Shown: positions 7,042-46,593 of the stretch, one piece after another
Layout of the letters: each line of letters starts with the position of its first letter
How positions within the stretch are numbered: position 1 is the stretch's first letter
NCBI GenBank assembly: GCA_026395215.1
Contig: JAPLZC010000005.1
Span: 8,392 to 72,391 of the forward strand
DNA length: 64,000 nt
Direction: 5' to 3'
Origin: Candidatus Staskawiczbacteria bacterium
GTDB lineage: Bacteria > Patescibacteriota > Minisyncoccia > Minisyncoccales > Staskawiczbacteraceae
Notes under the pieces: generated by a model
Told to the model about the DNA's origin: nothing
The model's database searches: none
What the model saw: only the letters and a program-made list of their open reading frames with translations
Translations under genes and position numbers: made by a program

Positions 7042-7126
7042 CGGAGGAGGTGAGACTCGAACTCACGAATCCTGTAAAGGATTACGGTTTTCGAAACCGT
7101 TGCAATAGCCACTATGCGACTCCTCC
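7042..7126 (-). tRNA. tRNA-Ser (anticodon CGA)
   Basis: Acceptor GGAGGAG/CTCCTCC, anticodon arm ACGGT-TTCGAAA-ACCGT, long variable arm, T-arm GTGAG-TTCGAGT-CTCAC. Confidence 0.85.
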
Positions 7127-7204
7127 AATAAATTTATATTATCACACTTTTATACTCTTTTACTAAAAAACACCGCTTGGAGCGATGCTTTCTGAATTAT
7201 AAAA

Positions 7205-7618
7205 TTACGATTTGGCTTCGTTTTTTATTAGAATCTTGTGCCAGTCGTTGAAGTCGTAAATGTCGTGGGCAATTATTCCGCAAACTACTCCCACAAAAAA
7301 CCTTGGTAAATAAAAGAAATCTATAAACCAAACAAGCAATAACAACAATGCCCCTAAAATCCAGTGATGAAAGTGAATCTTATATTTACCGCAATCTATG
7401 AAAATACAGTCCACTTTGCCATTTTCAATCAAATATTTTGAAAATATTTTAGACCCTATATATCCAATAGCCAAACCAAGAGTCAAAAGAAAAGAGTAAT
7501 AAAAACCAACCACCAGCACGAATGCCGGCAGATATCTTCTTACTTTTGTTTTATTACTTTTTGCGAGCTCTATATCTATTAATTTGCTGTTAATGTCGTT
7601 TGGTTCTATATTTTCCAT
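7205..7618 (-). CDS. Integral membrane protein, unknown function
   Basis: 137 aa with 3-4 hydrophobic segments and AT-rich codon usage like the backbone. Confidence 0.5.
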   Translation of the reverse strand: MENIEPNDINSKLIDIELAKSNKTKVRRYLPAFVLVVGFYYSFLLTLGLAIGYIGSKIFSKYLIENGKVDCIFIDCGKYKIHFHHWILGALLLLLVWFIDFFYLPRFFVGVVCGIIAHDIYDFNDWHKILIKNEAKS

Positions 7619-10656: not shown

Positions 10657-12756
10657 ATGAAAAGTTCTACTCGTGTTTTGTTAGCTGGAGCCATAATTTT
10701 AGGTGTTTTAACTGTTTTAGTTCCTTTTGCTGCCAATGCGGCCGACTTGAAAACTGCTTCCAGAAAAGCACCTGTAGCAAAAATTAACCTAACTTCCCCA
10801 AACGGAGGTGAAAAATGGCAAATTGGAACAACAGAAAAAATTAAATGGTCCACATCAAATGTTCCATCAAATGCATCAATATCAATTGGTGCTACAGGTT
10901 TTGGTAGCTTTACCGTAATTGGTGAAGATGGCTTGCCTCATATTGTAAACCAAATGGATTTTAACTTAACCGAAAACGAAGTTGCTAATAGTGGTTCAGT
11001 TAGCATTCCTGTAACTCTTAACCCAGGTATATATAAAATATTCGTAAAAACAATTGTTAACGGCACAATTATATATGATATTAGTAAAAACTATTTTACT
11101 GTTGTTGCCCCAAAATCTTGGCCTCATATTTTTTTATTGTCAGTAAACTCTGGAAAACCGGGCACTAAAGTTACTATTTATGGTAACAATCTTTACTCCC
11201 CTTCTGCTCCCTTTGTAGCAACATTTAATAATGCTACTCATGACAACGCAGTCAGTGGAGTTGCTTCTCGCAATGGCCATAGTTTTGTTTTTACAATTCC
11301 AACAGATCCTGTTTCTTCAGGAATTGGCGCTGGTAATTACACTATCACCCTTGAAAATACTTTAGGTCAACATAGCAACAGCGTTCCCTTCACCGTAATT
11401 GCACCGGCTCAACCGGTAGTGCCCGTAGTTTCGCAAAACGCGGGTTTTGCAAATCAGAATATTAGTCCGAATAGTTCTAATGTAAAAATTGGCTCATACG
11501 TTATCCAAAATCAAAGCACATCTGAATCAATTCGTTTAACATCACTAAATGTTCAAATGATTCCTGAAGTAGGAATATTTATAACAAACTTCTCATCTTT
11601 GAGAACTTCCGATACAACAGGATCAGGATCAACTCCTATCCAGCCAACTGGAAACGACAACTTCTCAGTTAACGATACATTGGCTCCAGGTGCTTCAATA
11701 ACCATTGATATCTTCGCCAACACGGGCGCAAGCACAACCGGAACGATTCAGACAGCGCTTCAAGTTACATCAATTAGCACAGCTGATAATATTACATCCA
11801 CAAGCTCAACTATCACAGGCCAAACAATGAGCATTGTGCAGATCACCCTTAATACACCAACCCGGGTTGCTTCTTTGACAACACCTTCGCAATATATTGC
11901 TTCGCCAGACGGTGCACAAAATGCAACACAAGTAACATATAACTTTACTGCAACCAATGGTGCTGCAACAATTACAGAACTTAGGTTTAATGTTACAGGC
12001 AATGATACTGTTACAGCTATTTGCGCTGGTTTAATGTGCGCTCAGCCAATTAATGGAGTTGCCTATTTAACAGGACTTAACATAACTGTTCCCGCGGGAA
12101 TGAGCGGAATTAACCAAAGAATGTTAGTTTCATATTCTCCAGTTGGTGCTGGCGGAATAGATTCAGGATTGACTTCAAATATTGCTTTAACTTATGTTAA
12201 ATACGTAGCTGGCGGAACAACATCAACTATTACACCAAACGTGACTGCTCCAACAATGGTCTTGGTTGGTTCTAAACCAACAGTCAGCGTTGCTTCAACA
12301 AATGTTGGAGGGCTTGTAATTGGTGCAGAAAACAAAATTGGAGAAGTTACAATTACAGCTACTCAGGGTGCTATAAAAATAAATACAATTACTTTTAATC
12401 TTGGAGCCAACGGGTTCTCAATTGCTCCAATGTTAACATCTATGCGTATTACCGATGGATTAGAAACTATAGCTGACAGTTCTTGCAGCCAAAAATTTGG
12501 TTCAGTTTTAACCTGTATTCTAGGGAATGGATACTCAACAGACTATCCAATTCCAGCAGGTCAATCAATAACATTCAACTTATTTGCCACAGTTGACGCC
12601 GTAGTTGCTCCAGGAATGACAGCAAGCCTTTCTACTTCAGTAACACCAGACCATTTTATCTGGGACGACACATCCGCAAATGGTTTATCTGGCACTGGAC
12701 TAAACGGTTTGTTAATTTACGGTTTCCCAACAGCCAGCTACTCAGTCCACCAATAA
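10657..12756 (+). CDS. Large secreted S/T/N-rich surface protein with IPT/TIG-like segment
   Basis: ATG 10657 gives the signal peptide MKSSTRVLLAGAIILGVLTVLVPFAANA. Repetitive beta-rich sequence. Terminator hairpin at about 12775-12812. Confidence 0.65.
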   Translation: MKSSTRVLLAGAIILGVLTVLVPFAANAADLKTASRKAPVAKINLTSPNGGEKWQIGTTEKIKWSTSNVPSNASISIGATGFGSFTVIGEDGLPHIVNQMDFNLTENEVANSGSVSIPVTLNPGIYKIFVKTIVNGTIIYDISKNYFTVVAPKSWPHIFLLSVNSGKPGTKVTIYGNNLYSPSAPFVATFNNATHDNAVSGVASRNGHSFVFTIPTDPVSSGIGAGNYTITLENTLGQHSNSVPFTVIAPAQPVVPVVSQNAGFANQNISPNSSNVKIGSYVIQNQSTSESIRLTSLNVQMIPEVGIFITNFSSLRTSDTTGSGSTPIQPTGNDNFSVNDTLAPGASITIDIFANTGASTTGTIQTALQVTSISTADNITSTSSTITGQTMSIVQITLNTPTRVASLTTPSQYIASPDGAQNATQVTYNFTATNGAATITELRFNVTGNDTVTAICAGLMCAQPINGVAYLTGLNITVPAGMSGINQRMLVSYSPVGAGGIDSGLTSNIALTYVKYVAGGTTSTITPNVTAPTMVLVGSKPTVSVASTNVGGLVIGAENKIGEVTITATQGAIKINTITFNLGANGFSIAPMLTSMRITDGLETIADSSCSQKFGSVLTCILGNGYSTDYPIPAGQSITFNLFATVDAVVAPGMTASLSTSVTPDHFIWDDTSANGLSGTGLNGLLIYGFPTASYSVHQ

Positions 12757-12885
12757 TTTAAAAGATTGTAAACAAAAACTGCCCAGATGTAATGTCGGGG
12801 CAGTTTTTTTGATTACTATACTTGGATTTTGGAAAATTTTTTTATGACTGGGCAATTGTTGAAAGATTAGATATAATAATGTTAT

Positions 12886-13554
12886 ATGCTTAATAAAAGG
12901 TCAAAATATTTGCAGATAGCTTTTAACCGCTCTCTTACTGAAGTAAGAAGTATGATTGCATTACTGCCAAGCTCAGAAAAAATTCTTATTGAAGCCGGGA
13001 CACCTTTTATTAAAAGGTACGGGCAGAACGGAGTTTCATTATTAAAAGGTTGGTGGAGTGCTAAATTAGGCAAAGAAGGATATATTGTTGCCGATTTAAA
13101 ATGCATGGATAGAGGGTCTAAAGAAGTTGAATCAATGGCCATGGCCGGCGCTTCGGCAATTACATGTTTGGGGTTGGCGCCAATTGATACAATAAATCAA
13201 TTTATTGCAGAATGCGAAAAATTTGGCATTGACTCAATGATTGATATGATGAACGTAGAATTCCCATTTGAAATTTTGCAAAAGCTAAAAAAACTTCCTG
13301 CTGTAGTTGTTCTGCATCGTGGAGTAGATGAGAATGAAAAAAATAGAGAAAAACAACTCCCCCACAATCAAATACGCAGAATAAAAGGAACATACAATAA
13401 TGTTTTAATATCTGTTGCCGGAGGGGAAAAAACACGAGATGTTATCAGAACTTATTTTAATGATGCTGACATAGCAGTTATTTGGAAATCTTTTTACGAA
13501 GCGCCAAATAACACCGCCGCTTTAGCGAAGGAATTCTTAAAGCTAGTTAAATGA
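12886..13554 (+). CDS. OMP-decarboxylase/HPS (3-hexulose-6-phosphate synthase)-like TIM-barrel protein
   Basis: LQIAFNRSL..ILIEAGTPFIKRYG..IVADLKCMDRG..AGASAITCLG..SVAGGEK fits the HUMPS/KGPDC-family pattern. Confidence 0.6.
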   Translation: MLNKRSKYLQIAFNRSLTEVRSMIALLPSSEKILIEAGTPFIKRYGQNGVSLLKGWWSAKLGKEGYIVADLKCMDRGSKEVESMAMAGASAITCLGLAPIDTINQFIAECEKFGIDSMIDMMNVEFPFEILQKLKKLPAVVVLHRGVDENEKNREKQLPHNQIRRIKGTYNNVLISVAGGEKTRDVIRTYFNDADIAVIWKSFYEAPNNTAALAKEFLKLVK

Positions 13555-14477
13555 TTACGAATAAAAAAAGCTTATATATAATAATAGGACTAATTATTAT
13601 AATTGCCTTTATAATTAACCCGGCATTTGGTTTTTTTGCCGTGTGGATTCTTATAGCTATTTTATCTAAAATAAAAAAACTAAAATCTTCACAAACACCC
13701 GCAACGCTCACTGACTTAATACAAAATTTACAAAGAACTACTAATGAAGAGGCTCAGCCTTTGCTTGATAACACAGCACAAATTGTTTTACCGCAACAAA
13801 TATTACTGGCTCCCGTTGCACAAATAAAATTAGATAAAAGAAAAAAGTATCTTCATATAGCGCTTAATAGCACCCTAGAAGAAGCACAAAATATAATATC
13901 TATTCTACCAACTTCTGATAGAATTTTAATTGAAGCCGGAACACCACTCATAAAAACATATGGAACTGATGCCGTCTCAAGTATTAGAAGTATGGCTCCC
14001 GTTGGAACATATATTGTTGCTGACAACAAATGCTGTGATTTAGCCTCACGCGAGGTGGAAATGATGGCCAATGCGGGAGCTAATGCCTCTACATGCCTTG
14101 GAGTGGCTCCCATAGAAACAATAGACAGCTTTATAGAAGAATGCTCAAAGTTTGGCATTGACTCAATAGTTGATATGATGAATGTTGCAGATGCTCTTTC
14201 GGTTTTAAAAAAACTAAAAAAAATCCCCGATGTTGTTATGTTACATAGAGGCGTTGACGAAAGTGAATTCTCTAAAGAAAAACAAATCCCCTACTACCAA
14301 ATTAAACAAATAAAAGGTAGTTATGATGTTTTGGTGGCTGTGGCCGGAGGAGACACAATTAAAGAAATACAAAGCGCCATTTTTAATGACGCTGATATTG
14401 TTGTAGTTTGGAAAAACTTCTACCAAGCCGACGAGGACACCGCCCAACTAGCCCAATCCTTCCTAAAAGAAATTTAA
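13551..14477 (+). CDS. Paralogous HPS-like protein with N-terminal TM anchor and linker
   Basis: C-terminal 220 aa is collinear with the upstream paralog (LHIALNSTL..ILIEAGTPLIKTYG..IVADNKCCDL..AVAGGDT). Overlaps the upstream stop by 4 nt. Confidence 0.6.
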   Translation: MITNKKSLYIIIGLIIIIAFIINPAFGFFAVWILIAILSKIKKLKSSQTPATLTDLIQNLQRTTNEEAQPLLDNTAQIVLPQQILLAPVAQIKLDKRKKYLHIALNSTLEEAQNIISILPTSDRILIEAGTPLIKTYGTDAVSSIRSMAPVGTYIVADNKCCDLASREVEMMANAGANASTCLGVAPIETIDSFIEECSKFGIDSIVDMMNVADALSVLKKLKKIPDVVMLHRGVDESEFSKEKQIPYYQIKQIKGSYDVLVAVAGGDTIKEIQSAIFNDADIVVVWKNFYQADEDTAQLAQSFLKEI

Positions 14478-16547: not shown

Positions 16548-16591
16548 ATTCGTGATTTGTGTAAATCCGTAGTCAATCTGTAAAAATCCGT
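16548..16591. repeat. AAATCCGT/AATCTGT oligomer cluster
   Basis: CGTGATTTGTGTAAATCCGTAGTCAATCTGTAAAAATCCGT. Same word family as the clusters at 51695, 53127 and 59795. Confidence 0.5.
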
Positions 16592-16990
16592 CTATTCCGT
16601 AGTCTTACCGTCAAATTCTGGGCCATCGGCTTCGGCTTCGGCTTTGGATGCTCTTTGTATACCGTCTCTGTGATGAGCAGGAGAATAAATGGTGTAAAGT
16701 TTTAAGCTCTCTGCCATTGAGACGTTAATTACGTTGTGTTGCGCTCCAGCTGGAACCAACACCGCTGAACCATCTTCAATTTCATGCTCAACTCCATCAA
16801 TTATTACTTTGCCACGCCCTTTTTCAAACCTAAAAAATTGGTCGTTATCTGCATGAACCTCCATCCCAATTTCTTCATTTGGCTTTAACGACATCAAAAC
16901 CAACTGGCAATGCTTTGCCGTGTAAACAACCTTCCTAAAGTTCTCATTCTCCAACGTATCCTTCTCAATATTAGAACAAAATCCTTTCAT
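16592..16990 (-). CDS. Cupin-domain protein
   Basis: 132 aa with GMEVHADNDQFFRFEKGRGKVIIDG..VLVPAGAQHNV cupin motifs. Confidence 0.75.
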   Translation of the reverse strand: MKGFCSNIEKDTLENENFRKVVYTAKHCQLVLMSLKPNEEIGMEVHADNDQFFRFEKGRGKVIIDGVEHEIEDGSAVLVPAGAQHNVINVSMAESLKLYTIYSPAHHRDGIQRASKAEAEADGPEFDGKTTE

Positions 16991-21565: not shown

Positions 21566-21730
21566 GAGCGAGGCGGTAAGTTTCCAGCGAGGAAATAGAT
21601 TTTAAAGGCACCTTCGGAGCCCTGCCAGCATGGTTTCCGCAACAGCGGAATGGCAGGGCGAGAATGAGGCGCGTCCCGCCGCTGGGCGGGATGACGCCGG
21701 TGCCGACTAAAATTTATTTCCGAGCGAGCG
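21566..21730 (+). repeat. GA-hairpin repeat element, copy E4
   Basis: AGCGAGGAAATAGATTTT...AAAATTTATTTCCGAGCG outer stem, GGCACC/GGTGCC, CCTGCCA..TGGCAGG, TTCCGC-AACA-GCGGAA, TCCCGCC-GCTG-GGCGGGA. About 93 percent identical by eye to 54773-54953. Confidence 0.75.
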
Positions 21731-23278: not shown

Positions 23279-23444
23279 AAGCGAGGCAATTAACTGTAGT
23301 GAGGCAGTAAGTTTCCAGAGCGAGGCAATAAACTTTTTGTAGGCCCAGGTCGACTTGCCCGAAGAGGCAAAGCGAGTTCCTGCTTGCCGAAAAAAGTTTG
23401 TTGCCGAGCGGCGATTACTGCCGAACGAAATTTGTTGCCAAGCG
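23279..23444 (+). repeat. GA-hairpin repeat element, copy E5, three nested layers
   Basis: Successive left arms are AAGCGAGGCAATTAACT, GTGAGGCAGTAAGTTTCC and AGCGAGGCAATAAACTTTTT. They are matched in reverse order by AAAAAGTTTGTTGCCGAGCG, GATTACTGCCGAACG and TTTGTTGCCAAGCG. Confidence 0.65.
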
Positions 23445-24438: not shown

Positions 24439-24669
24439 TTATTTTAGTAATTTTATGAATTCTTCTACGGTTAGCCCAGCTTGGTCTATGATTGATTTTA
24501 ATGTCTTTGGGCTCAAATCCTTCCTATGAAATGGAATTGTTACTCTCTTAGTTTTGTCTGAAACGTGTCGCAATTGGATATGACTACCGGAACAATGATA
24601 TTCAAAATAGCCTGCTCTTTTCAATGCTTTTATAGCTAATACAGAAGGTATTCTGGGGAGTTTTGGCAC
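24439..24669 (-). CDS. hicA: HicA-family mRNA interferase toxin
   Basis: 76 aa with ..AIKALKRAGYFEYHCSGSHIQLRH..VTIPFHRKDLSPKTLKSIIDQAGL.., the YcfA/HicA pattern. Confidence 0.85.
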   Translation of the reverse strand: MPKLPRIPSVLAIKALKRAGYFEYHCSGSHIQLRHVSDKTKRVTIPFHRKDLSPKTLKSIIDQAGLTVEEFIKLLK

Positions 24670-24673
24670 AAAA

Positions 24674-24901
24674 TTAAATTGCTACTTTTAATTTTTCTAT
24701 AGTGCATTTGCTGACCGACTTTTCTTTTAGCAAGGCTTCAATATAACAGCGGATAGCATCTTTTGCCATTTCTTTTGCTTCTTTTAAGTTATTTCCTTCG
24801 GTAACTAAACCGGGAAGTTTTGGAACTGTAACAGTATATCCCTGACCGTTTGGGTCAAAAACAGCCTCAAAATCATAAATTGTATCTTTTATTTTTGCCA
24901 T
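24674..24901 (-). CDS. hicB: HicB-family antitoxin
   Basis: 75 aa with ..GYTVTVPKLPGLVTEGNNLKEAKEMAKDAIRCYIEAL... Lies 4 nt upstream of hicA. Confidence 0.8.
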   Translation of the reverse strand: MAKIKDTIYDFEAVFDPNGQGYTVTVPKLPGLVTEGNNLKEAKEMAKDAIRCYIEALLKEKSVSKCTIEKLKVAI

Positions 24902-24905
24902 ATTT

Positions 24906-26177
24906 TTATTGTGATAATTTCTCCAAAATTTGGAAGATTTTCTCGTTGTGAACTACACCCTTAGTATACTCTCGAAATTGATTAATGTCAATTTCGCCCT
25001 GAGCGGAGTCGAAGGGTTTACCCTTTAACGCTTTTGTCACTTCTGCTTCAACCTCCTCATCAGAAACTTCTATCTTTTCTAATTTGCCCAATTCTCTAAG
25101 TACCAAGAACCCTTTCAGCCTCTTTTCGGCCTCTTTTCTGTAGGTTTCCTTTATTTCTGCCTCTGTTTTCTTCACCGAAGCCAGATATTCCTCAAAACTA
25201 ATTCCGGCAGTTTGCTTAATTTTGTTCTGCAGATCTTCCATTAACCTTTCTTGCTCATATTCTACCATTGCCTCGGGCATCTCAAATTTTGCTTTCTCAG
25301 CAATTTTCTGTAAAATTTCTCCGCGCACCTTCTGCTTTTCGGCTTCTTTTTTCTCGGCTGTCATCCCCTCTTTCATACCCTTCTTCAAAGACACCAAACC
25401 GTCAAAAGCTCCCAGTTGTTTTGCAAACTCATCATTTATTTCCGGCAACTCCATTTTCTGCACAGAAATCATTTTAATTTTGAAAACACTTTCTTTTCCG
25501 GCCAAATCCTTTCTTGGCAAATCCGCTGGAAATGTAACAGTAATTTCTTTTTCCTCGCCAGCCTTCATTTTTATAATGCCGTCTTCAAAACCTTTCATAA
25601 ATCCGGCCTCACCCAAAATAAACCGGTCATCTATCTCTTTTTCATTTTCTATATCCTTGCTTGAATATTTTATCTCTACAAAATCCCCCTTCTCTGCAAC
25701 ATCATTTTTCAAAGTCATTTTTGCGCGAGACTTTTGCAAATAATTCAAAGTATCCTGAACCTCTTCTTCAGTCACCTCAACATCTTTGCCCTTCACGGCC
25801 TTTGCAATCTCCTTATAATCTGGCAACTCAACTTCCGGTAATACTGTAATAACTGCCGTAAAAGCAAACTCGCCCCCTTGAGATACCTTCAAAATCTTTA
25901 CCTCCGGGTTTCCAACCGGTTCTAATTTAGATTCTTTTATGTAATCTACATAAGTGTGCTGAACTGCATGGTCACCAGCCTCCATTAACAAAGCTTCCGG
26001 TTTTATTTTATCCTCCACCATTGAGGCAGGCGCCTTTCCGGGTCTGAAACCATCCACCTTAACGTGATGTTTCATATGTTCTAAAGCATGTTTGGTATGC
26101 TCTTTAAACTCCTCCTCCGTCAACTCAAACGTTATTTCTAGCTGACTCTTGGGTAACTTTTTAATCTCTGTTTTCAC
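24906..26177 (-). CDS. tig: Trigger factor
   Basis: N-terminal ribosome-binding region VDGFRPGKAP, FKBP-like middle and C-terminal arms. GTG start. In-frame GC-rich insert at 24997-25016. Confidence 0.9.
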   Translation of the reverse strand: MKTEIKKLPKSQLEITFELTEEEFKEHTKHALEHMKHHVKVDGFRPGKAPASMVEDKIKPEALLMEAGDHAVQHTYVDYIKESKLEPVGNPEVKILKVSQGGEFAFTAVITVLPEVELPDYKEIAKAVKGKDVEVTEEEVQDTLNYLQKSRAKMTLKNDVAEKGDFVEIKYSSKDIENEKEIDDRFILGEAGFMKGFEDGIIKMKAGEEKEITVTFPADLPRKDLAGKESVFKIKMISVQKMELPEINDEFAKQLGAFDGLVSLKKGMKEGMTAEKKEAEKQKVRGEILQKIAEKAKFEMPEAMVEYEQERLMEDLQNKIKQTAGISFEEYLASVKKTEAEIKETYRKEAEKRLKGFLVLRELGKLEKIEVSDEEVEAEVTKALKGKPFDSAQGEIDINQFREYTKGVVHNEKIFQILEKLSQ

Positions 26178-26185: not shown

Positions 26186-26331
26186 AAGCGAGGCGATAGA
26201 TTAATAGCGAGGTAGTAAGTTTTCAGCGTATTTCAGGACACAAAGTGCCTGACCTAGTGAGTTTTCCCGCGAAGCGGGACAACGAACGTTAGCAGAAAAC
26301 TTACTGCCGAGCGATATCTGATTGCCGAGCG
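26186..26331 (+). repeat. GA-hairpin repeat element, copy E7, two nested layers
   Basis: Outer stem AAGCGAGGCGATAGAT / ATCTGATTGCCGAGCG. Inner stem AGCGAGGTAGTAAGTTTTC / GAAAACTTACTGCCGAGCG. Core contains TCCCGC-GAA-GCGGGA. Confidence 0.7.
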
Positions 26332-26460
26332 TTAAATTACTATAAATATTATTTATAATTATATAATTTACCATTTTTTTTCTAATAAATCAAGTAAAAA
26401 AAATCACCCGCAAGCTCAAAGCTTTTGGGTGTTATAGAAAAAACGAATTGCTCTTTGCGG

Positions 26461-31780: not shown

Positions 31781-32052
31781 ATTTTTTTCTTTTTTACTCC
31801 CAGCTGTAATTCTGTGCCGACCAACGAAAAAGCGGCTAAGAGAATTAATCCAGTTCGACAACTGAATGAAATCTCCCAACCGCCTTGGCGATCAGTCGCT
31901 TATTTCTTGTGGCTCCCCGCAGATTTCCCAGGTCGCCTACCCTCTAAAAAGAGGGAGAAACAAACGGTTTGTTTAAAACAAACAACTTTATATTTTCAAT
32001 CTACATCTTTATTATAGCATAGAAAACAGAAGTAAGCAAATCTCCTCTAAAT

Positions 32053-32658
32053 TTATTTCTTATTCTTGATTTTTCCCAATGACCAAATAATAAAATCTAA
32101 TACTTTCGTGTCTGACATCTCGTTCTTATCTTCTACATTAAAATCAGATCTAAATTTCAATATTATTTTTTTTATTTTTTCATCCTGCAATAAATCCGAA
32201 TATGCGCTCTTTAAAAATTCATAAATGCTCACGCAGGATTTAATTTTTTCGTCTTTAGTTTTTCCTTGTCTAGATTTATGAAAAACCCTTGAAACTTCTG
32301 CATCGAAAATCGGCTTACTGTTATCTAAAGTATGCAACAATTTAGTAGCAAAACTAAATTGAATCGTTTTTTGATTCTTGCTGTTTTTAAATTCATATAA
32401 TTCTAAAAGAATATCCTCTAAATTATTTTTGCCTTCTGCCATTAACTCAAAATAGTGATTCTTTATTTCGTCACTTAAGCCAGCATTATCCAATCTATAA
32501 AAAGACCTAAAAACAAACTGAAATAAAGTATTATTTTTGATATTGCCTTTTTTGTATTCGTTTTTTAAGAACAAATAAACATCAACGCTTTCCTGTGTTA
32601 TCTTTAATAAAATTTCATCCTGCTTTTTAATAATTTCTTGAATTATCTGATCTCTCAT
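32053..32658 (-). CDS. Hypothetical protein (201 aa), island-associated
   Basis: ORF 25 nt downstream of the 402-aa nuclease gene. No family recognised. Confidence 0.45.
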   Translation of the reverse strand: MRDQIIQEIIKKQDEILLKITQESVDVYLFLKNEYKKGNIKNNTLFQFVFRSFYRLDNAGLSDEIKNHYFELMAEGKNNLEDILLELYEFKNSKNQKTIQFSFATKLLHTLDNSKPIFDAEVSRVFHKSRQGKTKDEKIKSCVSIYEFLKSAYSDLLQDEKIKKIILKFRSDFNVEDKNEMSDTKVLDFIIWSLGKIKNKK

Positions 32659-32683
32659 AAATTTATTTTTAAATTATAGAACC

Positions 32684-33892
32684 CTACAACTCTGTCATTT
32701 CTATTTTTAATTTATACAACATTATAGAAACAGGAAAACGTAAGGCCTTAGCTGAAAGAGAAAGCGAGTTTTTCGCGCTATGTGCAATAATAATACCTCG
32801 AACTGTCTTGCCCATTTTTTGTGCAAGATTTCCTTCTACCCACTGCATATATCTTCCTAATTGGCCCGCGACAGCATCCGCTGCTGAATTTCTTTTTAAC
32901 TCAATAACAACAAAGTTGCCCTCTTTATCTATGGCTAAAATATCAATTGTTCCCACATCCTTAATATTATAATACTGTCCAGATCTACCATCCGAGTCAT
33001 TATACAACTCTAGCTCGCCGCCAAGTGATATTTTACCCATATTTTCAAATATAAAATTTTGAAGATCCTCCTCGTAAGTAAATCTCTCACCAGTTGTAAG
33101 GCTTTCCTTCTCACCAGAATCATCTACCCCTTCCGGCGCCGTAGTATCAGAATCTATTGCTTCAACATCAACTCCTACGACATCTTCTTTCTGCATAATC
33201 TGTGCTACAACATAAATAACATCTTGAGTTATCCATCTAAATTCATCGTCCTGAAAGGTAAGCCCACTCGTTAATGCATCCTTGATAGCTGAAATTTCAT
33301 TATTTTGCTTCAAATACTCTCTCATATCTTCAATTTTTGGTAAATATGCTTCGTATCTTTCTCCATCGGAAGTGTGGCCTGGAATTGAGAAATCGTTGTC
33401 TAGGAACTTACAGAAAATATTCCATTCCCGTGGCTTCAAGGCATTATGTAACATCGGATATCGATAACTCAGCAAAAGACTAAGGAATCTAATTCCAATA
33501 AAACTATGAGAGCTTTCGCCCAATCGTTTATTTCGTAACAACATAAGCTCATCAAATGATTTTTTTGTTTCGTTTATTCTCTTAGAAACTTTTTTATTAT
33601 CGTCAAATAGATTTCTTAGGATTTGGCGCGTTTCATCAGGGTTTTCTGTGGCAAAAATCAATAACATTTTTCTAGGAAAATACCAGCTACCAGCCACAAG
33701 ATTATTATTAACTATGGATGACTCAAGCATTGATACCAAATCATCAGCTTCTATGTTGAAGTTACGCATAAAAGTATCCACGGCCTTAAATTTATAACCC
33801 TCCTGATTTTTTACGTGCTCTTCAACTCCAATATCGGAAACATGTTTAAGAAATATCTTTACCCATTCTTGAATTTTTTCTTGATTAATCAT
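32684..33892 (-). CDS. NucS-C/DUF91-type PD-(D/E)XK nuclease with variable N-terminal domain (paralog 1)
   Basis: C-terminus reads VGTIDILAIDKEGNFVVIELKRNSAADAVAGQLGRYMQWV (D..ExK plus the QxxxY helix as in NucS). The N-terminus resembles the module seen on McrB-like restriction ATPases (..NLVAGSWYFPRKMLLIF..PDETRQILRNLFDD..). Confidence 0.65.
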   Translation of the reverse strand: MINQEKIQEWVKIFLKHVSDIGVEEHVKNQEGYKFKAVDTFMRNFNIEADDLVSMLESSIVNNNLVAGSWYFPRKMLLIFATENPDETRQILRNLFDDNKKVSKRINETKKSFDELMLLRNKRLGESSHSFIGIRFLSLLLSYRYPMLHNALKPREWNIFCKFLDNDFSIPGHTSDGERYEAYLPKIEDMREYLKQNNEISAIKDALTSGLTFQDDEFRWITQDVIYVVAQIMQKEDVVGVDVEAIDSDTTAPEGVDDSGEKESLTTGERFTYEEDLQNFIFENMGKISLGGELELYNDSDGRSGQYYNIKDVGTIDILAIDKEGNFVVIELKRNSAADAVAGQLGRYMQWVEGNLAQKMGKTVRGIIIAHSAKNSLSLSAKALRFPVSIMLYKLKIEMTEL

Positions 33893-33922
33893 ATATTTTT
33901 ATTTCTCGATTAATTTTTTTAT

Positions 33923-34090
33923 TTAATTTTTAAAATCGCTTTCGTCGGGCGTTAAAACATCCAAAAAAATTATCGCTAGAATAGAGAATACAATCCCCAT
34001 TGGCAAAAAACCATACTTTTTCAGCACAAACGCGCAAGCCACCGCCCCCACTATTTCTATTATAATCCTAAACCTAAAAGCTATCTCCAT
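33923..34090 (-). CDS. Possible 55-aa two-TM micro-protein
   Basis: By-eye translation gives MEIAFRFRIIIEIVGAVACAFVLKKYGFLPMGIVFSILAIIFLDVLTPDESDFKN*. No clear Shine-Dalgarno sequence. Below the ORF-track length cutoff. Confidence 0.3.
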   Translation of the reverse strand: MEIAFRFRIIIEIVGAVACAFVLKKYGFLPMGIVFSILAIIFLDVLTPDESDFKN

Positions 34091-34102
34091 TTTTACAATC
34101 AA

Positions 34103-34597
34103 TTAATTTTTATCTTTATGAGTCGGAATAAAGGTTACCTCGCACTCTACTTTTTGGTCTTCCTTATCTGCGGTATCATCTTCATCAACATCATCCTCGC
34201 AATAGTGACCAGCAAACTTTTTGCCCCATTCCCAACGGCATTTTTTGCAATGCCATTCAGGGTCTTCACCCGTAATACAACACCCACCCCAATAAATATC
34301 TATTCTTTCATTAAGCTCTACGCTATGTTCACCATACTCAATTTTTAAAACTTCGGCCGATCCACACTTTGGACACTTTTTAGGATTTAATTTTAAAATT
34401 TCAATTTTTTTCATCCAATTATCCAGCTCCTCTTTCATAAGAACTATTTCATCATACTCATATTCATCAACCCCCTCTAAAAAATCCGTAAATTTTTCAA
34501 ATACAATATCCGTAAGATCTTCACTAATATACTTATCTATTTCTTCCCGCGTTACCTCATTTTTTGTTTCCATAATTTTATTTTTCATATTTATCAA
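34103..34597 (-). CDS. Acidic protein with C-terminal zinc ribbon
   Basis: CPKCGSAEV...CCITGEDPEWHCKKCRWEW. Overlaps the upstream HNH gene by 20 nt. Confidence 0.55.
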   Translation of the reverse strand: MINMKNKIMETKNEVTREEIDKYISEDLTDIVFEKFTDFLEGVDEYEYDEIVLMKEELDNWMKKIEILKLNPKKCPKCGSAEVLKIEYGEHSVELNERIDIYWGGCCITGEDPEWHCKKCRWEWGKKFAGHYCEDDVDEDDTADKEDQKVECEVTFIPTHKDKN

Positions 34598-34952
34598 TAT
34601 AATTTTTTACGACCTTAGCGACGGCAGAATAATTTATATTTTTTTCTTTACAATAATCTTTTTTAAACCAATCCCGTAAGCTTTGGTCTTTTCTATTTGT
34701 ATTGCAATCCCAACAACAAATCGCAGTAATTTCACAGACCGGTTTGCCCTTGTTAACATAATCCCTTATGCTAACCCAATTTTTTTTATGATTAAGATGT
34801 TCAAATGTAGCACAATTCCTTATATTATTTGGGTCCCAGGAAAAAAGCATTTTTTTATGACAATATACACAATTAGTGTCTCTCTTTTTAATTTCTTCAA
34901 AATCATTTACTGGAATCCCATATTTATTTTTATAATACTGGCTATTCTGCAT
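34578..34952 (-). CDS. HNH-type nuclease-like protein
   Basis: TNCVYCHKKM..ATFEHLNHK..CCWDCNTNRKDQSLRDWF, with CxxC..H..N..CxxC-N spacing. Confidence 0.6.
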   Translation of the reverse strand: MQNSQYYKNKYGIPVNDFEEIKKRDTNCVYCHKKMLFSWDPNNIRNCATFEHLNHKKNWVSIRDYVNKGKPVCEITAICCWDCNTNRKDQSLRDWFKKDYCKEKNINYSAVAKVVKNYIDKYEK

Positions 34953-34954
34953 TT

Positions 34955-36139
34955 TTATTTCTCAATTAATTTTTGTTTTTTAAACTCTTGTAAACTAAAA
35001 TTTACTTTATACAAATAAACTTCTGTATCTTTTATTTTCTTCAAAGCATAATACAACCTCTCATCATACTTAGCCGAAATTATAATTCCCTTTACCTGCT
35101 CACCATCAGCTTTATTTTCTTCTATCCAACCCATATAACGCGCCAGTTGCCCAACAGTGTCATCACTTGTTTGGTTCTTTTTTAACTCGATTACTACATA
35201 CTGTTTAGTTTTCTTATCTTTAACAAGAATGTCTATTCTACCAACATTGGTTTGATATTGTTGGCTAACTAATTCTCCGCCCTCTTCAATTAAATCATAT
35301 TTTTTTCCTAATTCTGTTTTATCCCAATTCTCAATCAGAAAATCCTCTAATTGGCTCTCCATATAAAACAAACTTGGGTCAGAAGATTCTTCCACCTCTA
35401 ATGTCCCGATACTTTCATTTCCTATATCTTGCTTTTTTAAACCACCCCAAGGAGCTGGATCATCTTCCGCTTGAACCTTCCAAGATGAAACAATTAGATA
35501 AGAGTATAGAAAACAAGATAAGGTTCGTGGAGAGCACTTTAAACCAGCGTTTCTAAATCCGTTTATTATGGCTTCATTACTTTTAATTATTTTTTGTCCT
35601 ATTAATTCCCCCTCAAAAAGATTTTCAGAAGGAATATTAAAATATTCAATAACTTTCTTGCGGTCATTCAGAGATATCACACTTATAAATGATTTCGGAT
35701 CCCAAGCAAAGAGCATGGCATTAATTGCATTCCCACTTTGTCCAGTTAAATTATTGTGCCTCCCCTGATTTAATTTATATAAATCATCGATTAGCGCAGC
35801 AATTTCTTCTTTTGAAAAATTGAATATCTGATTAAGTTTCTCTTTTAATTTTGGCTCCCTCTTTATCTCATTAAACATTCTCCTCCACGCTCCTTGTGGT
35901 ATCATTGCCTTTGCAACAGCCTCACTATTCTTATTGTTTCCCTTGCCATTTCTGTCTAATATTCTAACCACTTCATCTATTTCCGCATCATCTAACTCTT
36001 TATCGTTATCTACCAATATTTTATTGTTCCAAAAATTACGAAATAGAGCACTCTGTTTTGCCCATATAGCATCCTTCTCCTCCGTATTATAATCTGCTAT
36101 AAATTTATTGAATAAAGATAAAATTTCTTCTTTTTCCAT
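34955..36139 (-). CDS. NucS-C/DUF91-type PD-(D/E)XK nuclease with a different N-terminal domain (paralog 2)
   Basis: C-terminus reads VGRIDILVKDKKTKQYVVIELKKNQTSDDTVGQLARYMGWI. ATG 36139 lies 4 nt after the upstream stop. Confidence 0.65.
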   Translation of the reverse strand: MEKEEILSLFNKFIADYNTEEKDAIWAKQSALFRNFWNNKILVDNDKELDDAEIDEVVRILDRNGKGNNKNSEAVAKAMIPQGAWRRMFNEIKREPKLKEKLNQIFNFSKEEIAALIDDLYKLNQGRHNNLTGQSGNAINAMLFAWDPKSFISVISLNDRKKVIEYFNIPSENLFEGELIGQKIIKSNEAIINGFRNAGLKCSPRTLSCFLYSYLIVSSWKVQAEDDPAPWGGLKKQDIGNESIGTLEVEESSDPSLFYMESQLEDFLIENWDKTELGKKYDLIEEGGELVSQQYQTNVGRIDILVKDKKTKQYVVIELKKNQTSDDTVGQLARYMGWIEENKADGEQVKGIIISAKYDERLYYALKKIKDTEVYLYKVNFSLQEFKKQKLIEK

Positions 36140-36143
36140 ATTT

Positions 36144-37088
36144 TTATTTCTCAATTAATTTATTATTTATAAGTTCCACAAACATTATAACTTTATTCTT
36201 GTTCCAATCCATAATTTTGACATACTTTCCATTGTGCTTATTCGGTCGGTTATATTTACAACCCTCACACTCATATTTCTCAACAGTGTCTGGTGTCTCT
36301 CCGAAGAGTGTTAACTTACCAGGAATAACCTTATTTTCATGATGGCAACTCATAGGAACAACATACTTTAGACCATCCATTTGAAAAATATTCCAGCTTA
36401 TGATTTCGGCAAATTCTTCTTGTACTCTGAGGTCTGGTGATCGCTTAAACTTATCCTTGTAATAATCAATAAGCGTGTATAGCAAATTCTCGCGTGCAAG
36501 TAACACATTATCACCCTGCCACTCATAGCCGTAACTTGCCATAAATGCAACTTTTGCCCAGAATAACCACCCACCCTTTTTATGACAATGTTTAGATACT
36601 ATTTTCAATTTTTTATCTAAAAAACCAACCCGACTATCTAATTTGATAAGTTTGCCAGTATGCGCAGTTGGATTATAACGACTCGCAATGAATGGTGCTT
36701 CACCACATGTAATCTCTAGCTTCAACTCGCGCACATACTCTTGCCAATTGTTTTTATCAGACATGAAATTTTTCCCCGACATATCTGTCTCTTTGTTGAT
36801 CTGGTCAATAATTTTCAGTGGTGTAAAAACTTCAGCCTTGTCTTTAGTCCGTTTCTTCTGCTCCTCTAAGCTTTTGGATGCCCGCGGCTGTATGAGTAAT
36901 CCGTATTTACCGGTCACTAAATTTGGTGTGATACACAATTCAGGCAAAAACCCCTGACCGTATTTTTCATATGAATCAGTCGCCCAGATAATATTCTTTT
37001 TTGTTGTGCGATCAATAAGTAAAATATCGAGCAAATTACCAATTCGTCGCAATGTATTTTCTAGTATGTCGATATTTAGCTTAGACAT
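36144..37088 (-). CDS. Methyltransferase-fold-like partner protein lacking NPPY; C-terminal Cys cluster
   Basis: KAEVFTPLKIIDQIN and EITCGEAPFIASRY resemble the pre-motif-I and motif-I region of gamma-class MTases. No (N/D/S)PP(Y/F/W) motif is present. C-terminus carries SCHHEN..CEGCKYN. Confidence 0.5.
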   Translation of the reverse strand: MSKLNIDILENTLRRIGNLLDILLIDRTTKKNIIWATDSYEKYGQGFLPELCITPNLVTGKYGLLIQPRASKSLEEQKKRTKDKAEVFTPLKIIDQINKETDMSGKNFMSDKNNWQEYVRELKLEITCGEAPFIASRYNPTAHTGKLIKLDSRVGFLDKKLKIVSKHCHKKGGWLFWAKVAFMASYGYEWQGDNVLLARENLLYTLIDYYKDKFKRSPDLRVQEEFAEIISWNIFQMDGLKYVVPMSCHHENKVIPGKLTLFGETPDTVEKYECEGCKYNRPNKHNGKYVKIMDWNKNKVIMFVELINNKLIEK

Positions 37089-37093
37089 AAGAA

Positions 37094-40000
37094 TTATTCA
37101 AAACAACCAATGATATTTTTTTCAGATTTTTCCTGAATATTCGCCATTACAAAATTATTTATTTTTTCAGGTATTTTATATTTTTCCATTAACTTGATAT
37201 CAATTTCCTTAACTGATTTTTTCCACCATGCTTCAGAATAATTCTGAATGGGAACTGCTCCCCAAGCTGTGGTTGAATGTTGGGAGTGCTTATTAAAATA
37301 CAAAAGTGCTCGAGCAAATTTTGTCATTAAAAATTTTGCATGTTTTTTTGCCTCAGTAATATTACTAAAAGGCCCTTGCTCTTGGTAAGTTTCTGTAACT
37401 ATTTCATATGGTTTAGCTATGATGATATCAGAATATGCACCACCAAGACCCGCCTGCTCTGACATGTTTCCCCAAGCATAGGGAACAAATACTTTAAATT
37501 TATCAAACGCTTTGGTTTTTCTTGGTATTGGATATTCTTTTCCTAGATAATAAACTTTACCAGAGAGAGCATATAATTTAACATCGTCTGCATTCCGTTG
37601 TTTTGTGTGTATTGGTGGCAAACCATATTTAGCTGGATCCTTGATCACGTCAGTACGTAGACCATATGGTTTAAGAACTGACGTAATAGATTGCATAGGA
37701 ACAAAATCTTCGAATGCTGTAACTATTTTTGCCATTTCCCGAATTTCTTTAGGTTTTCTATCATGATTTTGTTCAGTTGGTAGCAGTATTATTTGTGGAT
37801 CTTTTCCGTTAGTAAATATTTTTTGACTACCGTTTAAACCATTATTATATCCGTGTTTCCATAAAACTATATTTGTCCACTCTGCTCCGGCGATACCAGG
37901 AAAGACATTTTGCCGGTTGTCTACAAAGACTACCTGAGGATCTTCTTTGATGTCTTTATTGTTAAGTAGTCTTAAATTATTGCCATTCTTAGGGTCCTGC
38001 CATCCAATTGGAAAAATGAGTGAAACAAATTCACCAAGCTCACGACTCGCTAAATAAAAATAGGGATAAATCTGTTGATGATTTTCTCCTTGATATGGCG
38101 GATTTCCTACGATGGCTGTAAATTTCATATTTTTTCCAAAATTAATTTTAATTTTATCAGATAAGGCATTGCGATTTTCAACCATTTGTGTATCCTCGTC
38201 CTCAAAATATACAAAATTCTTTTCTACTTTATACTTAACTTTTTTTAATTCTGGTCGTCTATGCATAAAGCCAAAAATAGTATCGCTAGATATTAAGTGT
38301 AAAATCTTACTCGGTGCAAAGCCGTATACTTGGTGCGTTAATATATGTTCTAGGCGTTTATTCTTATCGGGTATTTGGCGCTGTAAGTTATTATACAACC
38401 TTTTAACTATTTCAGTTATAAACAACCCCGATTTCATATATGGGTCAAGAAATGTATTCTCTTTTGATTTGAATATACCAGGATTCTGCTTTTCGAGGGT
38501 ATCGATTATCATTTTAACAACAGCTTTAGGGGTATATATCTGATTAGTTTGCTGTGGAGGAATGTAGTCAAATATATCTGAATCGCTGTCATTTTCATAA
38601 TAGTCCGCCAACTTCTCCTTACGGCTTAAAAATTCGACAATTGAGGCATTAAAAACTTCTTCATTGAATAATTTATACTTATCACGCAATTCCTGGAATT
38701 GTTCTTTAGTAATACCGACAAGCTCTTGAAAGGTTATAGAGTCTATATACTTTTCAAAATTATCGAGTCTAGTGTCTGGTTTACCATATGCCATCAAAAT
38801 CATTGGAACAGCACGAGCAAAGTAACGTAAGTGATCATGAATTGCATTTTCTTGTTCAGCCTCTTCCTTTTCAGCCTGTTTTTCCAGCTTGGTTTTTATA
38901 TCAGAAGGAGGCAAGTCATCAACGGTTGGTGGCTGATCTGTTGGCAAGTCTGGGTTGTCTTGTATCAATTCTTCGTATTTTTTCTTACCAAGGTTTGATT
39001 TATTGAGTATCAGATTGCCATCATTATCGTACTCAAGTTGAGGCTCGGAAATAGGGTTTTTGTTTTTGTCATGCTCTATGCGCCCTTTTTTTATAGTACC
39101 CATTTCATTCAATATATCTCGTGCGCTGGCAGGCAGGTGAAAGATGTTACCAATGTTGAAAAGCTTATTTGAGGTAATAAATTTACCGTCAACGATCTCC
39201 TGCGTCATGAGTTTGAGGGGCATAGTAACGACTTCATTGGCATCAAGCTCTTTCATCTCGCCGTATTCATCTTCAGCAACTACAGTCAAAAAGTTAAGTA
39301 ATTTTTTTACCTTATCTTTGGCTCCCTCCCCGCCCCCAATAACACTCTTGGCATAATCTTGAAATATAAGCAACAATCTATCGGGCGCAAAATCAAACAC
39401 ATAACAGTTTTCTTTTACCATGTCGTTGCCACTTTTGTCCGTATAGCGCCATGGATTCTGTCCTCGAAAAGCAGCCTGAAGATATTTGGTAGCGGAGGTC
39501 TTGCCACCTTCAGCCCCGTAAAGCATCAACACCGCAGTCCATGGTTTTACAGTTACACCAGTTGTTAATTGCCCACATGAAAGGGTAATAGTCTTAGTTG
39601 TAAGTGGTTTATTGTCTTCACCAATAATATTCTTAACTTTCTCTAGTGCAGTTTTTCCTTCGTGCTCAGTGTCACCTTTAGCAGCAGCATCAATAATTTC
39701 ATAATCAGCAAAAATCTTCCGAGAAGGAGAGTTTCTCGCCTGCTCTTGCATAAGTTTCTTTAGTGCTTTGACGGCAGATACACCTGGCAGTAGCCAAAAT
39801 GTATGCTTAAGTTCATCACGAATCTCTTTGTCCGCGAATGGAAATGGTCGAGCATTTTGGTCATTTTTGCTATTAATACCGAACATATTATCTAGAAACT
39901 TCAGCACCATCTCTTCATATACAAACTTGGCTTGTGTGGTCTTAAATAGCTCGTTAAGATCAAAAGCGTATTCACCATCTGCGACAGTAGCATTAAGAGT

Positions 40001-41122: not shown

Positions 41123-41161
41123 TATTATCTCCAGTTTAGTCCTAAATCGGGTTGGGTTCAA
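41123..41161 (-). repeat. Upstream box (U-box), copy 1
   Basis: Minus strand reads TTGAACCCAACCCGATTTAGGACTAAACTGGAGATAATA. Near-identical to 42494-42533. Readable as TTGAAC-17-TAAACT. Confidence 0.6.
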
Positions 41162-41261
41162 TACTTCGACTCGTTTTCACTCGCTCACCACAGTGCCACA
41201 AAATAAAAAAAGCCCCACGAGTTATCGCGGGGTTGAATGCATTATGAAACAGTTTTGATTC

Positions 41262-43283: not shown

Positions 43284-43437
43284 ATTCTATATATCCATTT
43301 TATCCCTAAACCAACTCATTTTCAAGGTTCAACTGTAATCTCCCCCGCCCCAGGTTAATGAGTATTGACCTGGCCATTCCACTTTCACCAAGCCATAAAG
43401 GAATCCAAATAATCTTTTATGCACGTAAAAATCAAAC

Positions 43438-43467
43438 AAAAAAAAGACGCTTATTTGATTCAGCGTC
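43438..43467 (-). terminator. Shared cassette terminator, copy R1
   Basis: Minus strand reads GACGCTGAATCAAATAAGCGTC followed by T8. Confidence 0.7.
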
Positions 43468-43497
43468 ATGCTTGCAGAACAAGCAATTGCGCCTGAT

Positions 43498-45059: not shown

Positions 45060-45120
45060 AACAAATTGCAAAAGCAACACCAACCCGGAAGTATAAATAT
45101 ACAACCGGGCTTTTTTTTAC

Positions 45121-45150
45121 AAAAAAAAGACGCTTATTTGATTCAGCGTC
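45121..45150 (-). terminator. Shared cassette terminator, copy R2
   Basis: Hairpin identical to R1 (GACGCTTATTTGATTCAGCGTC on plus), flanked by an A/T run. Confidence 0.7.
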
Positions 45151-45176
45151 ATGTTTGTTTCTTCTTTCTCGATAAA

Positions 45177-45608: not shown

Positions 45609-45694
45609 ACAGTCCTCCTTTTCGAGTTACCACACATGCAATCAGGTTTATTTACACATTATAACTTTAACAATTTTTAGTCAATTAGTTTTGC

Positions 45695-45724: not shown

Positions 45725-45727
45725 ATA

Positions 45728-46561: not shown

Positions 46562-46593
46562 ATACTTGTGCAAAAAAACTTTGTGTTTACAGG

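Follow-up and report, generated by a model that had tools for sequence, protein, structure and literature searches.

The Locus and the Architecture of E7

In the 64,000-nucleotide (nt) stretch of contig JAPLZC010000005.1 from Candidatus Staskawiczbacteria bacterium that was analysed as a whole (hereafter the window), the gene for trigger factor, tig (24906-26177, minus strand; Pfam Trigger_N/FKBP_C/Trigger_C), is preceded by a nested hairpin repeat at 26187-26331 on the plus strand, here called E7. E7 is a composite in which a complete element of what is described below as class 2 is lodged between two arms that remain of an older element, since gutted, and it belongs to a large, apparently undescribed family of repeats in bacteria of the Candidate Phyla Radiation (CPR), whose members are closed at their ends by tandem G.A mismatches and are therefore referred to as GA-clamped. 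The GTG start codon of tig (26175-26177, minus strand) lies 9 nt from E7. The tig promoter (26365-26393, minus strand) consists of TTGATT (26388-26393), N14 and TGGTAAATT (26365-26373), and eight related genomes retain its form, TTGATT-N14-TGnTAAATT, whether or not an element is present, among them those labelled L003, L004, L005, L006, L007, L011 and L014 (compared sequences carry such L numbers throughout). Because the promoter lies past the far end of E7, the element is inside the tig 5′ untranslated region (UTR) and is transcribed as its reverse complement. The window's tig is 67-77% identical to those of metagenome-assembled genomes (MAGs) of Candidatus Staskawiczbacteria, and its TruB is among the proteins that NCBI lists for a Staskawiczbacteria MAG. 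The minus strand carries about 80% of the genes in the window. The GC content is about 38%, and the plus strand has a negative GC skew over its full length, so that it is taken to be the lagging strand, i.e., the leading-strand template.

The outer layer of E7 is formed by a 5′ arm at 26187-26201 (plus strand, as are all parts of E7), AGCGAGGCGATAGAT, in which the end module AGCGAGG is followed by the stem GGCGATAGAT, and by a 3′ arm at 26316-26331, ATCTGATTGCCGAGCG, composed of ATCTGATTGCC and CCGAGCG; the two pair in both RNA and DNA folds, with one bulged G and one G.T. Inside it lies the complete inner element of 108 nt (26206-26313), made of two arms, a three-way junction and two hairpins. 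Its 5′ arm (26206-26224), AGCGAGGTAGTAAGTTTTC, combines AGCGAGG with the 14-nt stem GGTAGTAAGTTTTC and covaries, relative to the copies in L004, with the 3′ arm (26295-26313), GAAAACTTACTGCCGAGCG, in which GAAAACTTACTGCC is followed by the end module CCGAGCG; across the whole inner element, 9 of the 36 pairs are compensatory in this comparison. The 5′ strand of the three-way junction that makes up the class 2 core, AGCGTATTT (26225-26233), is conserved in two L004 copies (3128-3233 and 13499-13612) and in another copy of the window (6632-6760), and the 3′ junction strand, TTAGCA (26289-26294), is conserved in class 2 copies as GTTAGCAG. Between them stand hairpin A (26234-26251; CAGG-A-CAC-AAA-GTG-CCTG), a shape that recurs with compensatory changes in 51 class 1 elements, and hairpin B (26256-26288), which has its own GA module, GTGAG...CGAAC, and at its apex the mini-hairpin TCCCGC-GAA-GCGGGA (26265-26279). 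The clamp of hairpin B is GCGAG/CGAGC in L004 and GUGAG/CGAAC in E7, a compensatory change from C-G to U-A beside the G.A pairs.

Every layer of E7 is closed by 5′-GCGAGG/5′-CCGAGC, a symmetric 2x2 loop in which tandem G.A/A.G mismatches are enclosed by G-C pairs. As RNA, the plus strand of E7 folds with -63.4 kcal/mol (z = -7.2; none of 200 shuffles equals it) and the minus strand with -48.0 kcal/mol (z = -4.5); with DNA parameters the values are -29.3 (z = -5.1) and -24.2 (z = -3.4), respectively. A preliminary description, made from the letters of this DNA, had proposed that two arm pairs are nested around the TCCCGC-GAA-GCGGGA core and that each is bounded by the same GA-mismatch module. 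The predicted fold contains both of these stems, and the module recurs in both layers and, in the altered form GUGAG/CGAAC, a third time in hairpin B. The description had also noted wobble pairs in the plus sense only; in agreement with this, the plus strand folds with two G.U pairs and the minus strand without any. Across the window, AGCGAGG occurs 12 times against 3.3 expected and CCGAGCG 10 times against 1.8, an enrichment of 4-5 fold whose counts no shuffle equals, and nearly all copies of either motif are on the plus strand. E7 is not due to chance and had been correctly observed. Two Logan contigs, L001 and L002, which are independent short-read contigs and 100% identical to the window, both stop at 26280, in the middle of E7, which indicates that the repeat breaks assemblies.

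A Family of GA-Clamped Repeats

This CPR genome contains the family in multiple copies, and among related Parcubacteria it is widespread. The window holds five loci, all on the plus strand, with 13 GA-clamped hairpin layers on that strand and none on the minus strand. Besides E7, with its two layers in the tig 5′ UTR, they comprise a one-layer copy with a class 2 core (6632-6760) that lies antisense and in frame inside truB, its 129 nt amounting to 43 codons; a copy at the end of rny (21567-21726), with the stop codon of rny on one side and a bidirectional terminator on the other, in which an orphan outer 5′ arm (21567-21585) precedes a complete class 3 element of 141 nt (21586-21726); a three-layer copy in the spacer between clpP and rny (23280-23444), with arms at 23280-23297/23428-23444, 23298-23318/23411-23427 and 23319-23338/23391-23410; and a copy at 54762-54953, after the stop codon of a UPF0102 gene (54958-55350), in which a degenerate outer layer (AGTGAGAC.../...GTTAGCTGGAAATTTACTGCCGAGCG) surrounds a class 3 element (54785-54925). 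The two class 3 sequences, 21586-21727 and 54785-54926, are at unlinked loci and 93% identical, which speaks for a recent duplication; three compensatory double changes are among the differences between them.

No fewer than three core types are found under the common clamp, namely class 1 (74-95 nt), class 2 (106-129 nt; the inner element of E7 belongs here) and class 3 (141 nt), so that family units measure 74-141 nt; most members are single-layered. The 20-nt arms AGCGAGGCAATAAACTTTTT and AAAAAGTTTGTTGCCGAGCG match as inverted repeats at about 15 of the 20 positions. In the related MAG loci L003-L014, tig and every convincing match to the family are on opposite strands. Metagenome contigs, scanned with one arm subtype, gave at least 120 matches, of which 97 were genuine and 94 distinct; 23 of the matches listed are due to chance, in GC-rich DNA without AT-rich arms. 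Four matches on viral contigs are likewise chance matches without hairpins, and an association with phages was rejected.

Rfam recognised none of the copies at the gathering threshold and nothing over the whole window at E <= 5; for E7 alone, at E <= 10, the sole match was a chance one to the Plasmodium RUF6 model (16 bits). No description of the family was found in the literature. Groundwater and sediment metagenomes commonly contain it, apparently without annotation, and its abundance is unexpected in that the genomes of CPR bacteria (Patescibacteria) are tiny and presumed to have few repeats and little selfish DNA, yet a structured repeat family takes up about 1 kb of these 64 kb.

Several further sequences resemble these elements to a degree. 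An AGCGAGG...CCGAACG fragment with poor arm pairing (49662-49707), between the gene for an H+-PPase and the next gene, is probably a decayed copy. Another GA-clamped type, in which a GC hairpin comes after arms rich in GC (GGCGAGCGGGCAAAAAAT...ATTTTTTGCCCGCGAGCC), occurs in the window at 346-410 and 431-457, in L007 at 7352-7411 and in L106 at 37-93 and 2495-2551; in L106 it is found on both strands, and both copies that were checked in it run in the same sense as the genes beside them.

Independence of the Layers

The preliminary description had left a choice between elements that inserted repeatedly into each other and one long, rod-like hairpin, and had suggested that the layers be compared among copies. 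Such a comparison shows that layers are not inherited as one fixed unit, but are found independently of one another. What forms the innermost layer in the three-layer copy (23319-23410) exists as a single-layer element in L003, L006, L010, L012, L014 and dozens of metagenome contigs. The clpP-rny spacer itself carries three layers in the window, two in L037 and in L051, one in L012 and none in L004. In the tig leader, between homologous flanks, the window has a class 2 element with an outer layer, L006 a single class 1 element and L007 a different leader structure that was called 'class 4', and eight other species have none.

The layers also appear to differ in age. Degenerate end motifs (AGTGAGG, CCGAACG, CCAAGCG) are found in outer layers, around an innermost layer that is intact, and degenerate outer layers or orphan arms characterise about 16% of the metagenome copies among the matches listed. 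Orphan 5′ or 3′ arms are present in the window (21567-21585), in L004 and in L031, and may have come about through slippage involving the 7-nt direct repeats that stacked arms provide. Remnants of the class 2 3′ junction (GTTAGC...) persist beside nested inner elements in the window (54926-54953), L031 and L065, and these show the resident elements to have been gutted, not assembled as rods. Taken together, the independent layers, the degenerate outer layers and the orphan arms favor nested insertion over one designed rod, and the first of the two earlier proposals is the one that gains from the single-layer cores, the swapping of elements at a site, the degenerate outer ends and the orphan arms.

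The second proposal was that of a single rod in which G.A modules, spaced every ~19 bp, could bind proteins, for which those of the L7Ae/YbxF type were to be tried; it is taken here as an RNA rod with modules resembling kink-turns (K-turns). The modules are indeed tandem G.A/A.G pairs flanked by G-C pairs, 5′-CGAG-3′ being the classic context of sheared tandem G.A pairs in RNA and DNA, and they are invariant and 18-20 nt apart in stacked layers. In E7 the periodicity holds for the stacked arms, with the 5′ modules 19 nt and the 3′ modules 18 nt apart, but not beyond them, the next module being 50 nt further inward. Every module, however, is a symmetric 2x2 loop without the 3-nt bulge and the kink-forming asymmetry of a K-turn, so that the geometry is not that of a K-turn; the layers are separable, of differing ages, and most members of the family have only one. 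No Ribosomal_L7Ae match was found among the open reading frames (ORFs) of the 64-kb window, and RNA of the folding polarity is not expected, E7 being antisense in the tig leader. The rod with its protein-binding sites is thus not supported in the form proposed, the single-layer copies and orphan arms already going far to refute it, and we regard it as hardly credible.

Strand Polarity and the Folding Molecule

The pairing within the elements was followed across the family. In 34 elements of class 1b/c, 97.3% of the cells are paired, and the covariation score of 0.185 compares with 0.096 for shuffles (0 of 500 equal it) and with at most 0.073 for slid controls. The pairing is strand-specific. 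On the element strand, 101 unique elements contain 148 G.U pairs versus 15 single (1x1) A.C mismatches, and in 94 of the 101, as well as in all 13 window and MAG copies, it folds more stably than the other strand. An asymmetry of C-to-T changes on the coding or leading strand predicts the opposite pattern, and we infer from this that pairing on the element strand is under selection. The element strand is antisense to the genes that are transcribed through it, and neither a promoter nor a terminator is consistently associated with it. To tell a link of the orientation with replication from one with transcription, the GC skew was decomposed at 23 loci of mixed orientation, of which 16 fit both rules, four only the antisense rule and three only the replication rule.

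As to the folding molecule, the apical loops are triloops in 48 of 106 cases, 34 of them C-GAA-G, with GCA next. Triloops of the C-GNA-G type and tandem sheared G.A pairs in a Py-GA-Pu context are hallmarks of unusually stable DNA hairpins; tandem 5′-CGAG-3′ is stable in RNA as well. The triloops, the Py-GA-Pu clamp and the lack of an expected transcript thus favor a role as folded single-stranded DNA (ssDNA), which we take with moderate confidence to be the acting form of the element. The invariance of the GA module suggests that some factor recognises it. A folding constraint on a strand that is presumably not transcribed could reveal a new enzyme acting on ssDNA or a polar chromosomal signal. 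The motifs for which preference for DNA or RNA is at issue are CCCGCGAAGCGGG and AGCGAGG-stem...stem-CCGAGCG.

The same data could be explained by a small structured RNA, or a family of cis-antisense RNAs, transcribed from the element strand. Such RNAs would account for the strong covariation and the tolerance of G.U pairs on that strand and for the three-way junction with its conserved junction strands; in addition, AGCGAGG often comes directly after a purine (A), and there could be -10-like boxes in the AT-rich spacer. Yet no promoter is conserved, the upstream sequence being the antisense of unrelated coding regions, and a scan with consensus sequences and an inspection of the upstream contexts gave nothing consistent, so that a promoter belonging to the element was rejected. 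There is no terminator signature either, since at least five T in the first 8 nt follow only 19 of 92 copies; the U-tract after the hairpin is not enriched in either sense, and a function as terminator was rejected for both. Rfam, as stated above, offers no match even at E <= 10, the loops are C-GNA-G triloops and not the GNRA or UNCG tetraloops typical of RNA, and nesting, orphan arms and in-frame insertion into ORFs are the behaviour of repeat DNA. An RNA of this kind is accordingly judged to be quite unlikely. Specific RNA structures were also tried and rejected: a hammerhead core (CUGAGUGAG...CGAAC) has the wrong spacing, is not conserved in other copies and has no Rfam match; the conserved motifs of domain IV of the signal recognition particle (SRP) RNA are absent; and the truB junctions do not have the pairing of a bulge-helix-bulge intron.

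Insertion Sites between Genes

Among the matches listed, 84 of the 94 distinct copies have a 5′ end that is no more than 80 nt (mostly 3-23 nt) away from where a gene on the opposite strand starts, and in about 55 of the 94 the stop codon of the preceding co-directional gene is 0-7 nt from the 3′ end; the elements therefore fill short, AT-rich operon spacers. Their orientation relative to the flanking genes is about 15:1 in favor of antisense, with about six sense copies, again among the matches listed. The neighbours of intergenic copies are assorted housekeeping genes (S12/S7, L10/L12, nusA, frr, trmD, EF-G), and no specific gene family is associated with these copies. A/T makes up 85-95% of the flanks, in which A is preferred at positions -1 and +1 and no target tetranucleotide is conserved; direct repeats of 2-8 nt that could be target-site duplications (TSDs) occur in the flanks of 92 copies at chance frequency. 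In this manner the elements remodel the leaders and operon junctions of core genes, such as tig, rny and the ribosomal operons.

This placement would suit a cis-acting mRNA element that benefits the host, its transcribed reverse complement (CGCUCGG...CCUCGCU) serving between cistrons or in the 5′ UTR as a stabiliser, a processing site or an insulator of translation. The fixed orientation near start codons, the frequent abutment on the preceding stop codon, the copies inside the classic operons S12-S7 and L10-L7/L12 and upstream of nusA, and the position of E7 in the tig leader, downstream of a conserved promoter, all agree with it, as do the co-occupation of sites across species, the conservation above that of host genes and the minus-sense hairpin, which at -48 kcal/mol is still strong. 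The pairing, however, is kept on the other strand, as the ratio of G.U to A.C and the 94 of 101 more stable element strands attest, so that the mRNA sense is left with C.A and tandem U.C mismatches, although an RNA selected in that sense should accept G.U no worse than C.A. Moreover, some copies are inside ORFs, where a UTR function is meaningless, the sense-oriented copies mentioned above exist, and many orthologous sites are empty. We consider such an mRNA element unlikely.

The layout of stop codon, 0-7 nt, element, 3-23 nt and next start codon also recalls the attC sites of integrons, i.e., folded single-strand targets of a site-specific recombinase that would mark the boundaries of cassette-like genes. 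The likeness extends to the strand-specific folding, with the folding strand antisense to the ORFs, to the conserved 7-nt ends, the imperfect inverted arms and the variable terminal structure, and to the absence of a TSD. In sedentary chromosomal integrons, the folding strand of attC is likewise reported on the leading-strand template, as it is here. The ends, on the other hand, which read CGCTCGG...CCTCGCT in the gene sense, differ from the R boxes RYYYAAC/GTTRRRY, of which only partial ...CAAC/GTT... matches are found inside the arms. Neither an integrase nor a tyrosine recombinase was found by Pfam among the window ORFs, the flanking genes are syntenic housekeeping genes (ribosomal proteins, nusA, tig, rny) and not cassettes, and, once more, some copies are inside ORFs. 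That the elements are sites of the attC kind is thus very unlikely.

Insertions into Genes for tRNA-Modification Enzymes

The copies inside ORFs are exemplified by truB (6135-7034, minus strand), whose Pfam TruB_N domain is split at the insertion site. The insert adds exactly 129 nt, or 43 codons without a stop and in frame, and the E. coli TruB aligns on both flanks of a 44-residue insert in the window's protein. Many TruB homologues of CPR bacteria have an insert at the same codon, with peptides that start with SLGNKLF and end with KSLLPR, which are the translated arms, and the TruB proteins of close relatives are without it. In the truB DNA of three genomes with the insert (L139-L141), the family was found antisense and in frame, with two to three nested layers. 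In L141, the core is about 93% identical to that of the window, the TruB proteins being about 66% identical, and the arms differ yet are complementary. Further copies inside ORFs affect Tgt, MnmA and a MiaB-like enzyme (L027 5278-5355; L057 239-324; L135 4045-4118), so that the four verified in-frame host proteins are all tRNA-modification enzymes, to which the elements add peptide segments; the peptides that the inserts encode are again the translated arms (SLGNKLF... / ARQQ... ...KNLLPR). A second, small GC-rich hairpin insert (CCCCGCCTGCAGCGCTATGCGCAGCATTGCGGG) is present in truB at window ~6343-6377, where it adds about 13 residues, and other CPR TruB proteins (P0002, P0037, P0043) have inserts at that site too.

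These insertions invite comparison with the Rickettsia palindromic elements (RPEs), palindromes of ~100-150 bp in a reduced genome, many of which lie in frame in conserved genes and are translated as an extra peptide, with others being intergenic (PMC10969869). Both families insert in frame and without stops into conserved ORFs, here those for TruB, Tgt, MnmA and MiaB, where homologues lack the element, and for neither is a transposase known. The sequences, however, are probably unrelated and belong to different phyla, lineage and composition making homology unlikely; the GA-clamped copies are furthermore mostly intergenic, clamped at their ends by tandem G.A pairs, strand-polar with respect to genes, and nested.

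Other Palindromic Repeats and a Possible Mechanism

Extragenic hairpin repeats of the REP/REPIN type, which RAYT (Y1 HUH) transposases mobilise, and BIMEs are abundant, are presumed to be recognised as ssDNA, produce no TSD, form composite clusters and have hairpins that are targeted by insertions (PMC3116915, PMC3333891, PMC1525189). The GA-clamped elements are likewise abundant extragenic hairpins that lack a TSD and form composites. They differ in their ends (AGCGAGG/CCGAGCG, without a GTAG/CGTC tag), in their units of 74-141 nt with structured cores versus hairpins of 20-40 nt, and in that their layers are concentric and do not stand side by side in alternating orientation. No RAYT (Y1 transposase) was found among the window ORFs or among the top-listed families adjoining the 94 elements. 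With ERIC/IRU and Correia/NEMIS repeats, they share the form of imperfect palindromes of ~100-150 bp in transcribed intergenic parts of operons, with size variants that result from internal insertions. Correia repeats and other MITEs (miniature transposable elements with inverted repeats) of the DDE type make TSDs, whereas the GA-clamped copies show none; of the features by which such MITEs are recognised, terminal inverted repeats are present, and a TSD and, in ~1 Mb, a parent insertion sequence (IS) with the same ends are absent. ERIC occurs in both orientations, in contrast to the ~15:1 bias seen here and to the selection of pairing on the non-transcribed polarity. In behaviour, then, the family is nearest to RPE, REPIN and ERIC; what sets it apart from them is that its GA clamp does not vary, that its layers nest concentrically and that folding is constrained on the strand that is not transcribed.

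On this basis, the reading that we favor, with confidence slightly better than even, is that the GA-clamped elements are mobile or selfish palindromic DNA that makes no TSD and acts as a folded single strand, much as RPE and REPIN. Their mobility is suggested, at the level of sequence comparison, by the similarity of copies, the polymorphism of sites across species and the insertions into ORFs, and the mechanism would involve an ssDNA intermediate and a dedicated enzyme. The elements would be non-autonomous and would require a folded single strand, most likely of DNA, for their propagation or maintenance. An enzyme, possibly of the HUH/Y1 type or a recombinase, would recognise the GA-clamped hairpin, and resident hairpins would be the preferred landing sites, so that newcomers would settle between the arms of older copies and give rise to concentric nesting. 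The outer layers would then decay, and the loss of one arm by slippage between the 7-nt direct repeats would leave the onion-like composites and orphan arms.

Several observations weigh against this reading. Pfam detected no transposase, HUH/Y1 enzyme or recombinase among the ~75 ORFs of the window, and ~1 Mb of related DNA contained no ORF between matching arms 300-4000 nt apart; candidates for an autonomous parent element were rejected, the long-range arm pairs being neighbouring, separate elements. The loci compared included no strain-level pair of a filled and an empty site, similar pairs being duplicates, and transposition was thus not caught in the act. The folding strand is, by GC skew, the leading-strand template, a polarity contrary to the one known for ssDNA transposition in IS200/IS605. 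The copies surveyed did not include a minimal solo hairpin shorter than 66 nt, which leaves the clean swap of a resident core by a newcomer unexplained. Finally, conservation across species is higher in the arms and cores than in the host genes, and copies persist at their sites, which would fit a function beneficial to the host equally well.

An extension of the idea, possible but doubtful, is that the hairpins are substrates of a Parcubacteria-wide ssDNA system, which might be a new HUH- or recombinase-type mobilisation with homing, or a chromosomal function of the host that is read from the leading-strand template. If true, it would explain why pairing is conserved on the non-transcribed polarity and why the ends and cores outconserve the host genes, as well as the re-occupation of the same truB codon across lineages and the landing of newcomers inside residents.

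Other Features of the tig Leader and the Window

Some features of the tig region stand apart from the argument above. In the three genomes with an element in the tig leader (the window's, L006 and L007), tig starts with GTG, and the start is ATG where the element is absent. The 'class 4' leader (AGCGAGGCGAACAAGAYTGCTTCGG...GCTGAAC...CGCT) is found upstream of tig, rny and nusA in relatives, on the minus strand at L007 ~2230-2328, L009 ~12750-12852 and ~2600-2699, and L004 ~7050-7154; AGCGAGG is there either Watson-Crick paired or part of the loop of a hairpin to which the 9 nt preceding the start codon contribute. A hicAB toxin-antitoxin pair is wedged between tig and clpP (24439-24901), and a separate gene for a HicA toxin is located at 47809-48039. 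Two identical, terminator-like hairpins of 37 nt (AAAAAACCGCCTCCAGCCTAGCTCGGGACGGTTTTTT), at 47395-47431 and 48060-48096, 665 nt apart, flank small ORFs that include this HicA toxin gene.

The low-GC island (0.32-0.36) at 32000-41200, which contains two PD-(D/E)XK paralogues (NucS_C/YhcG-like) and encodes a 1355-residue protein with ResIII helicase and Eco57I-type methylase parts, is probably a defence island. Other repeats of the window include a palindromic one based on CCGCTTAAGCGG (family D1), with seven copies at 53894-54341, 55822 and 57861, and the motif AAAAAAAAGACGCTTATTTGATTCAGCGTCAT, which is repeated in the intergenic regions of a 3-kb stretch (43418-43474, 45111-45157, 45685-45731 and 46512-46568). 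A last repeat family (CGGATTTTCAC... / CTGTGTAAATCCGT...) is found in the leaders of nusA and other genes (16557-16596, 51688-51793, 53130-53227 and 59788-59892), and upstream of nusA it holds the place that GA-clamped elements occupy in relatives.

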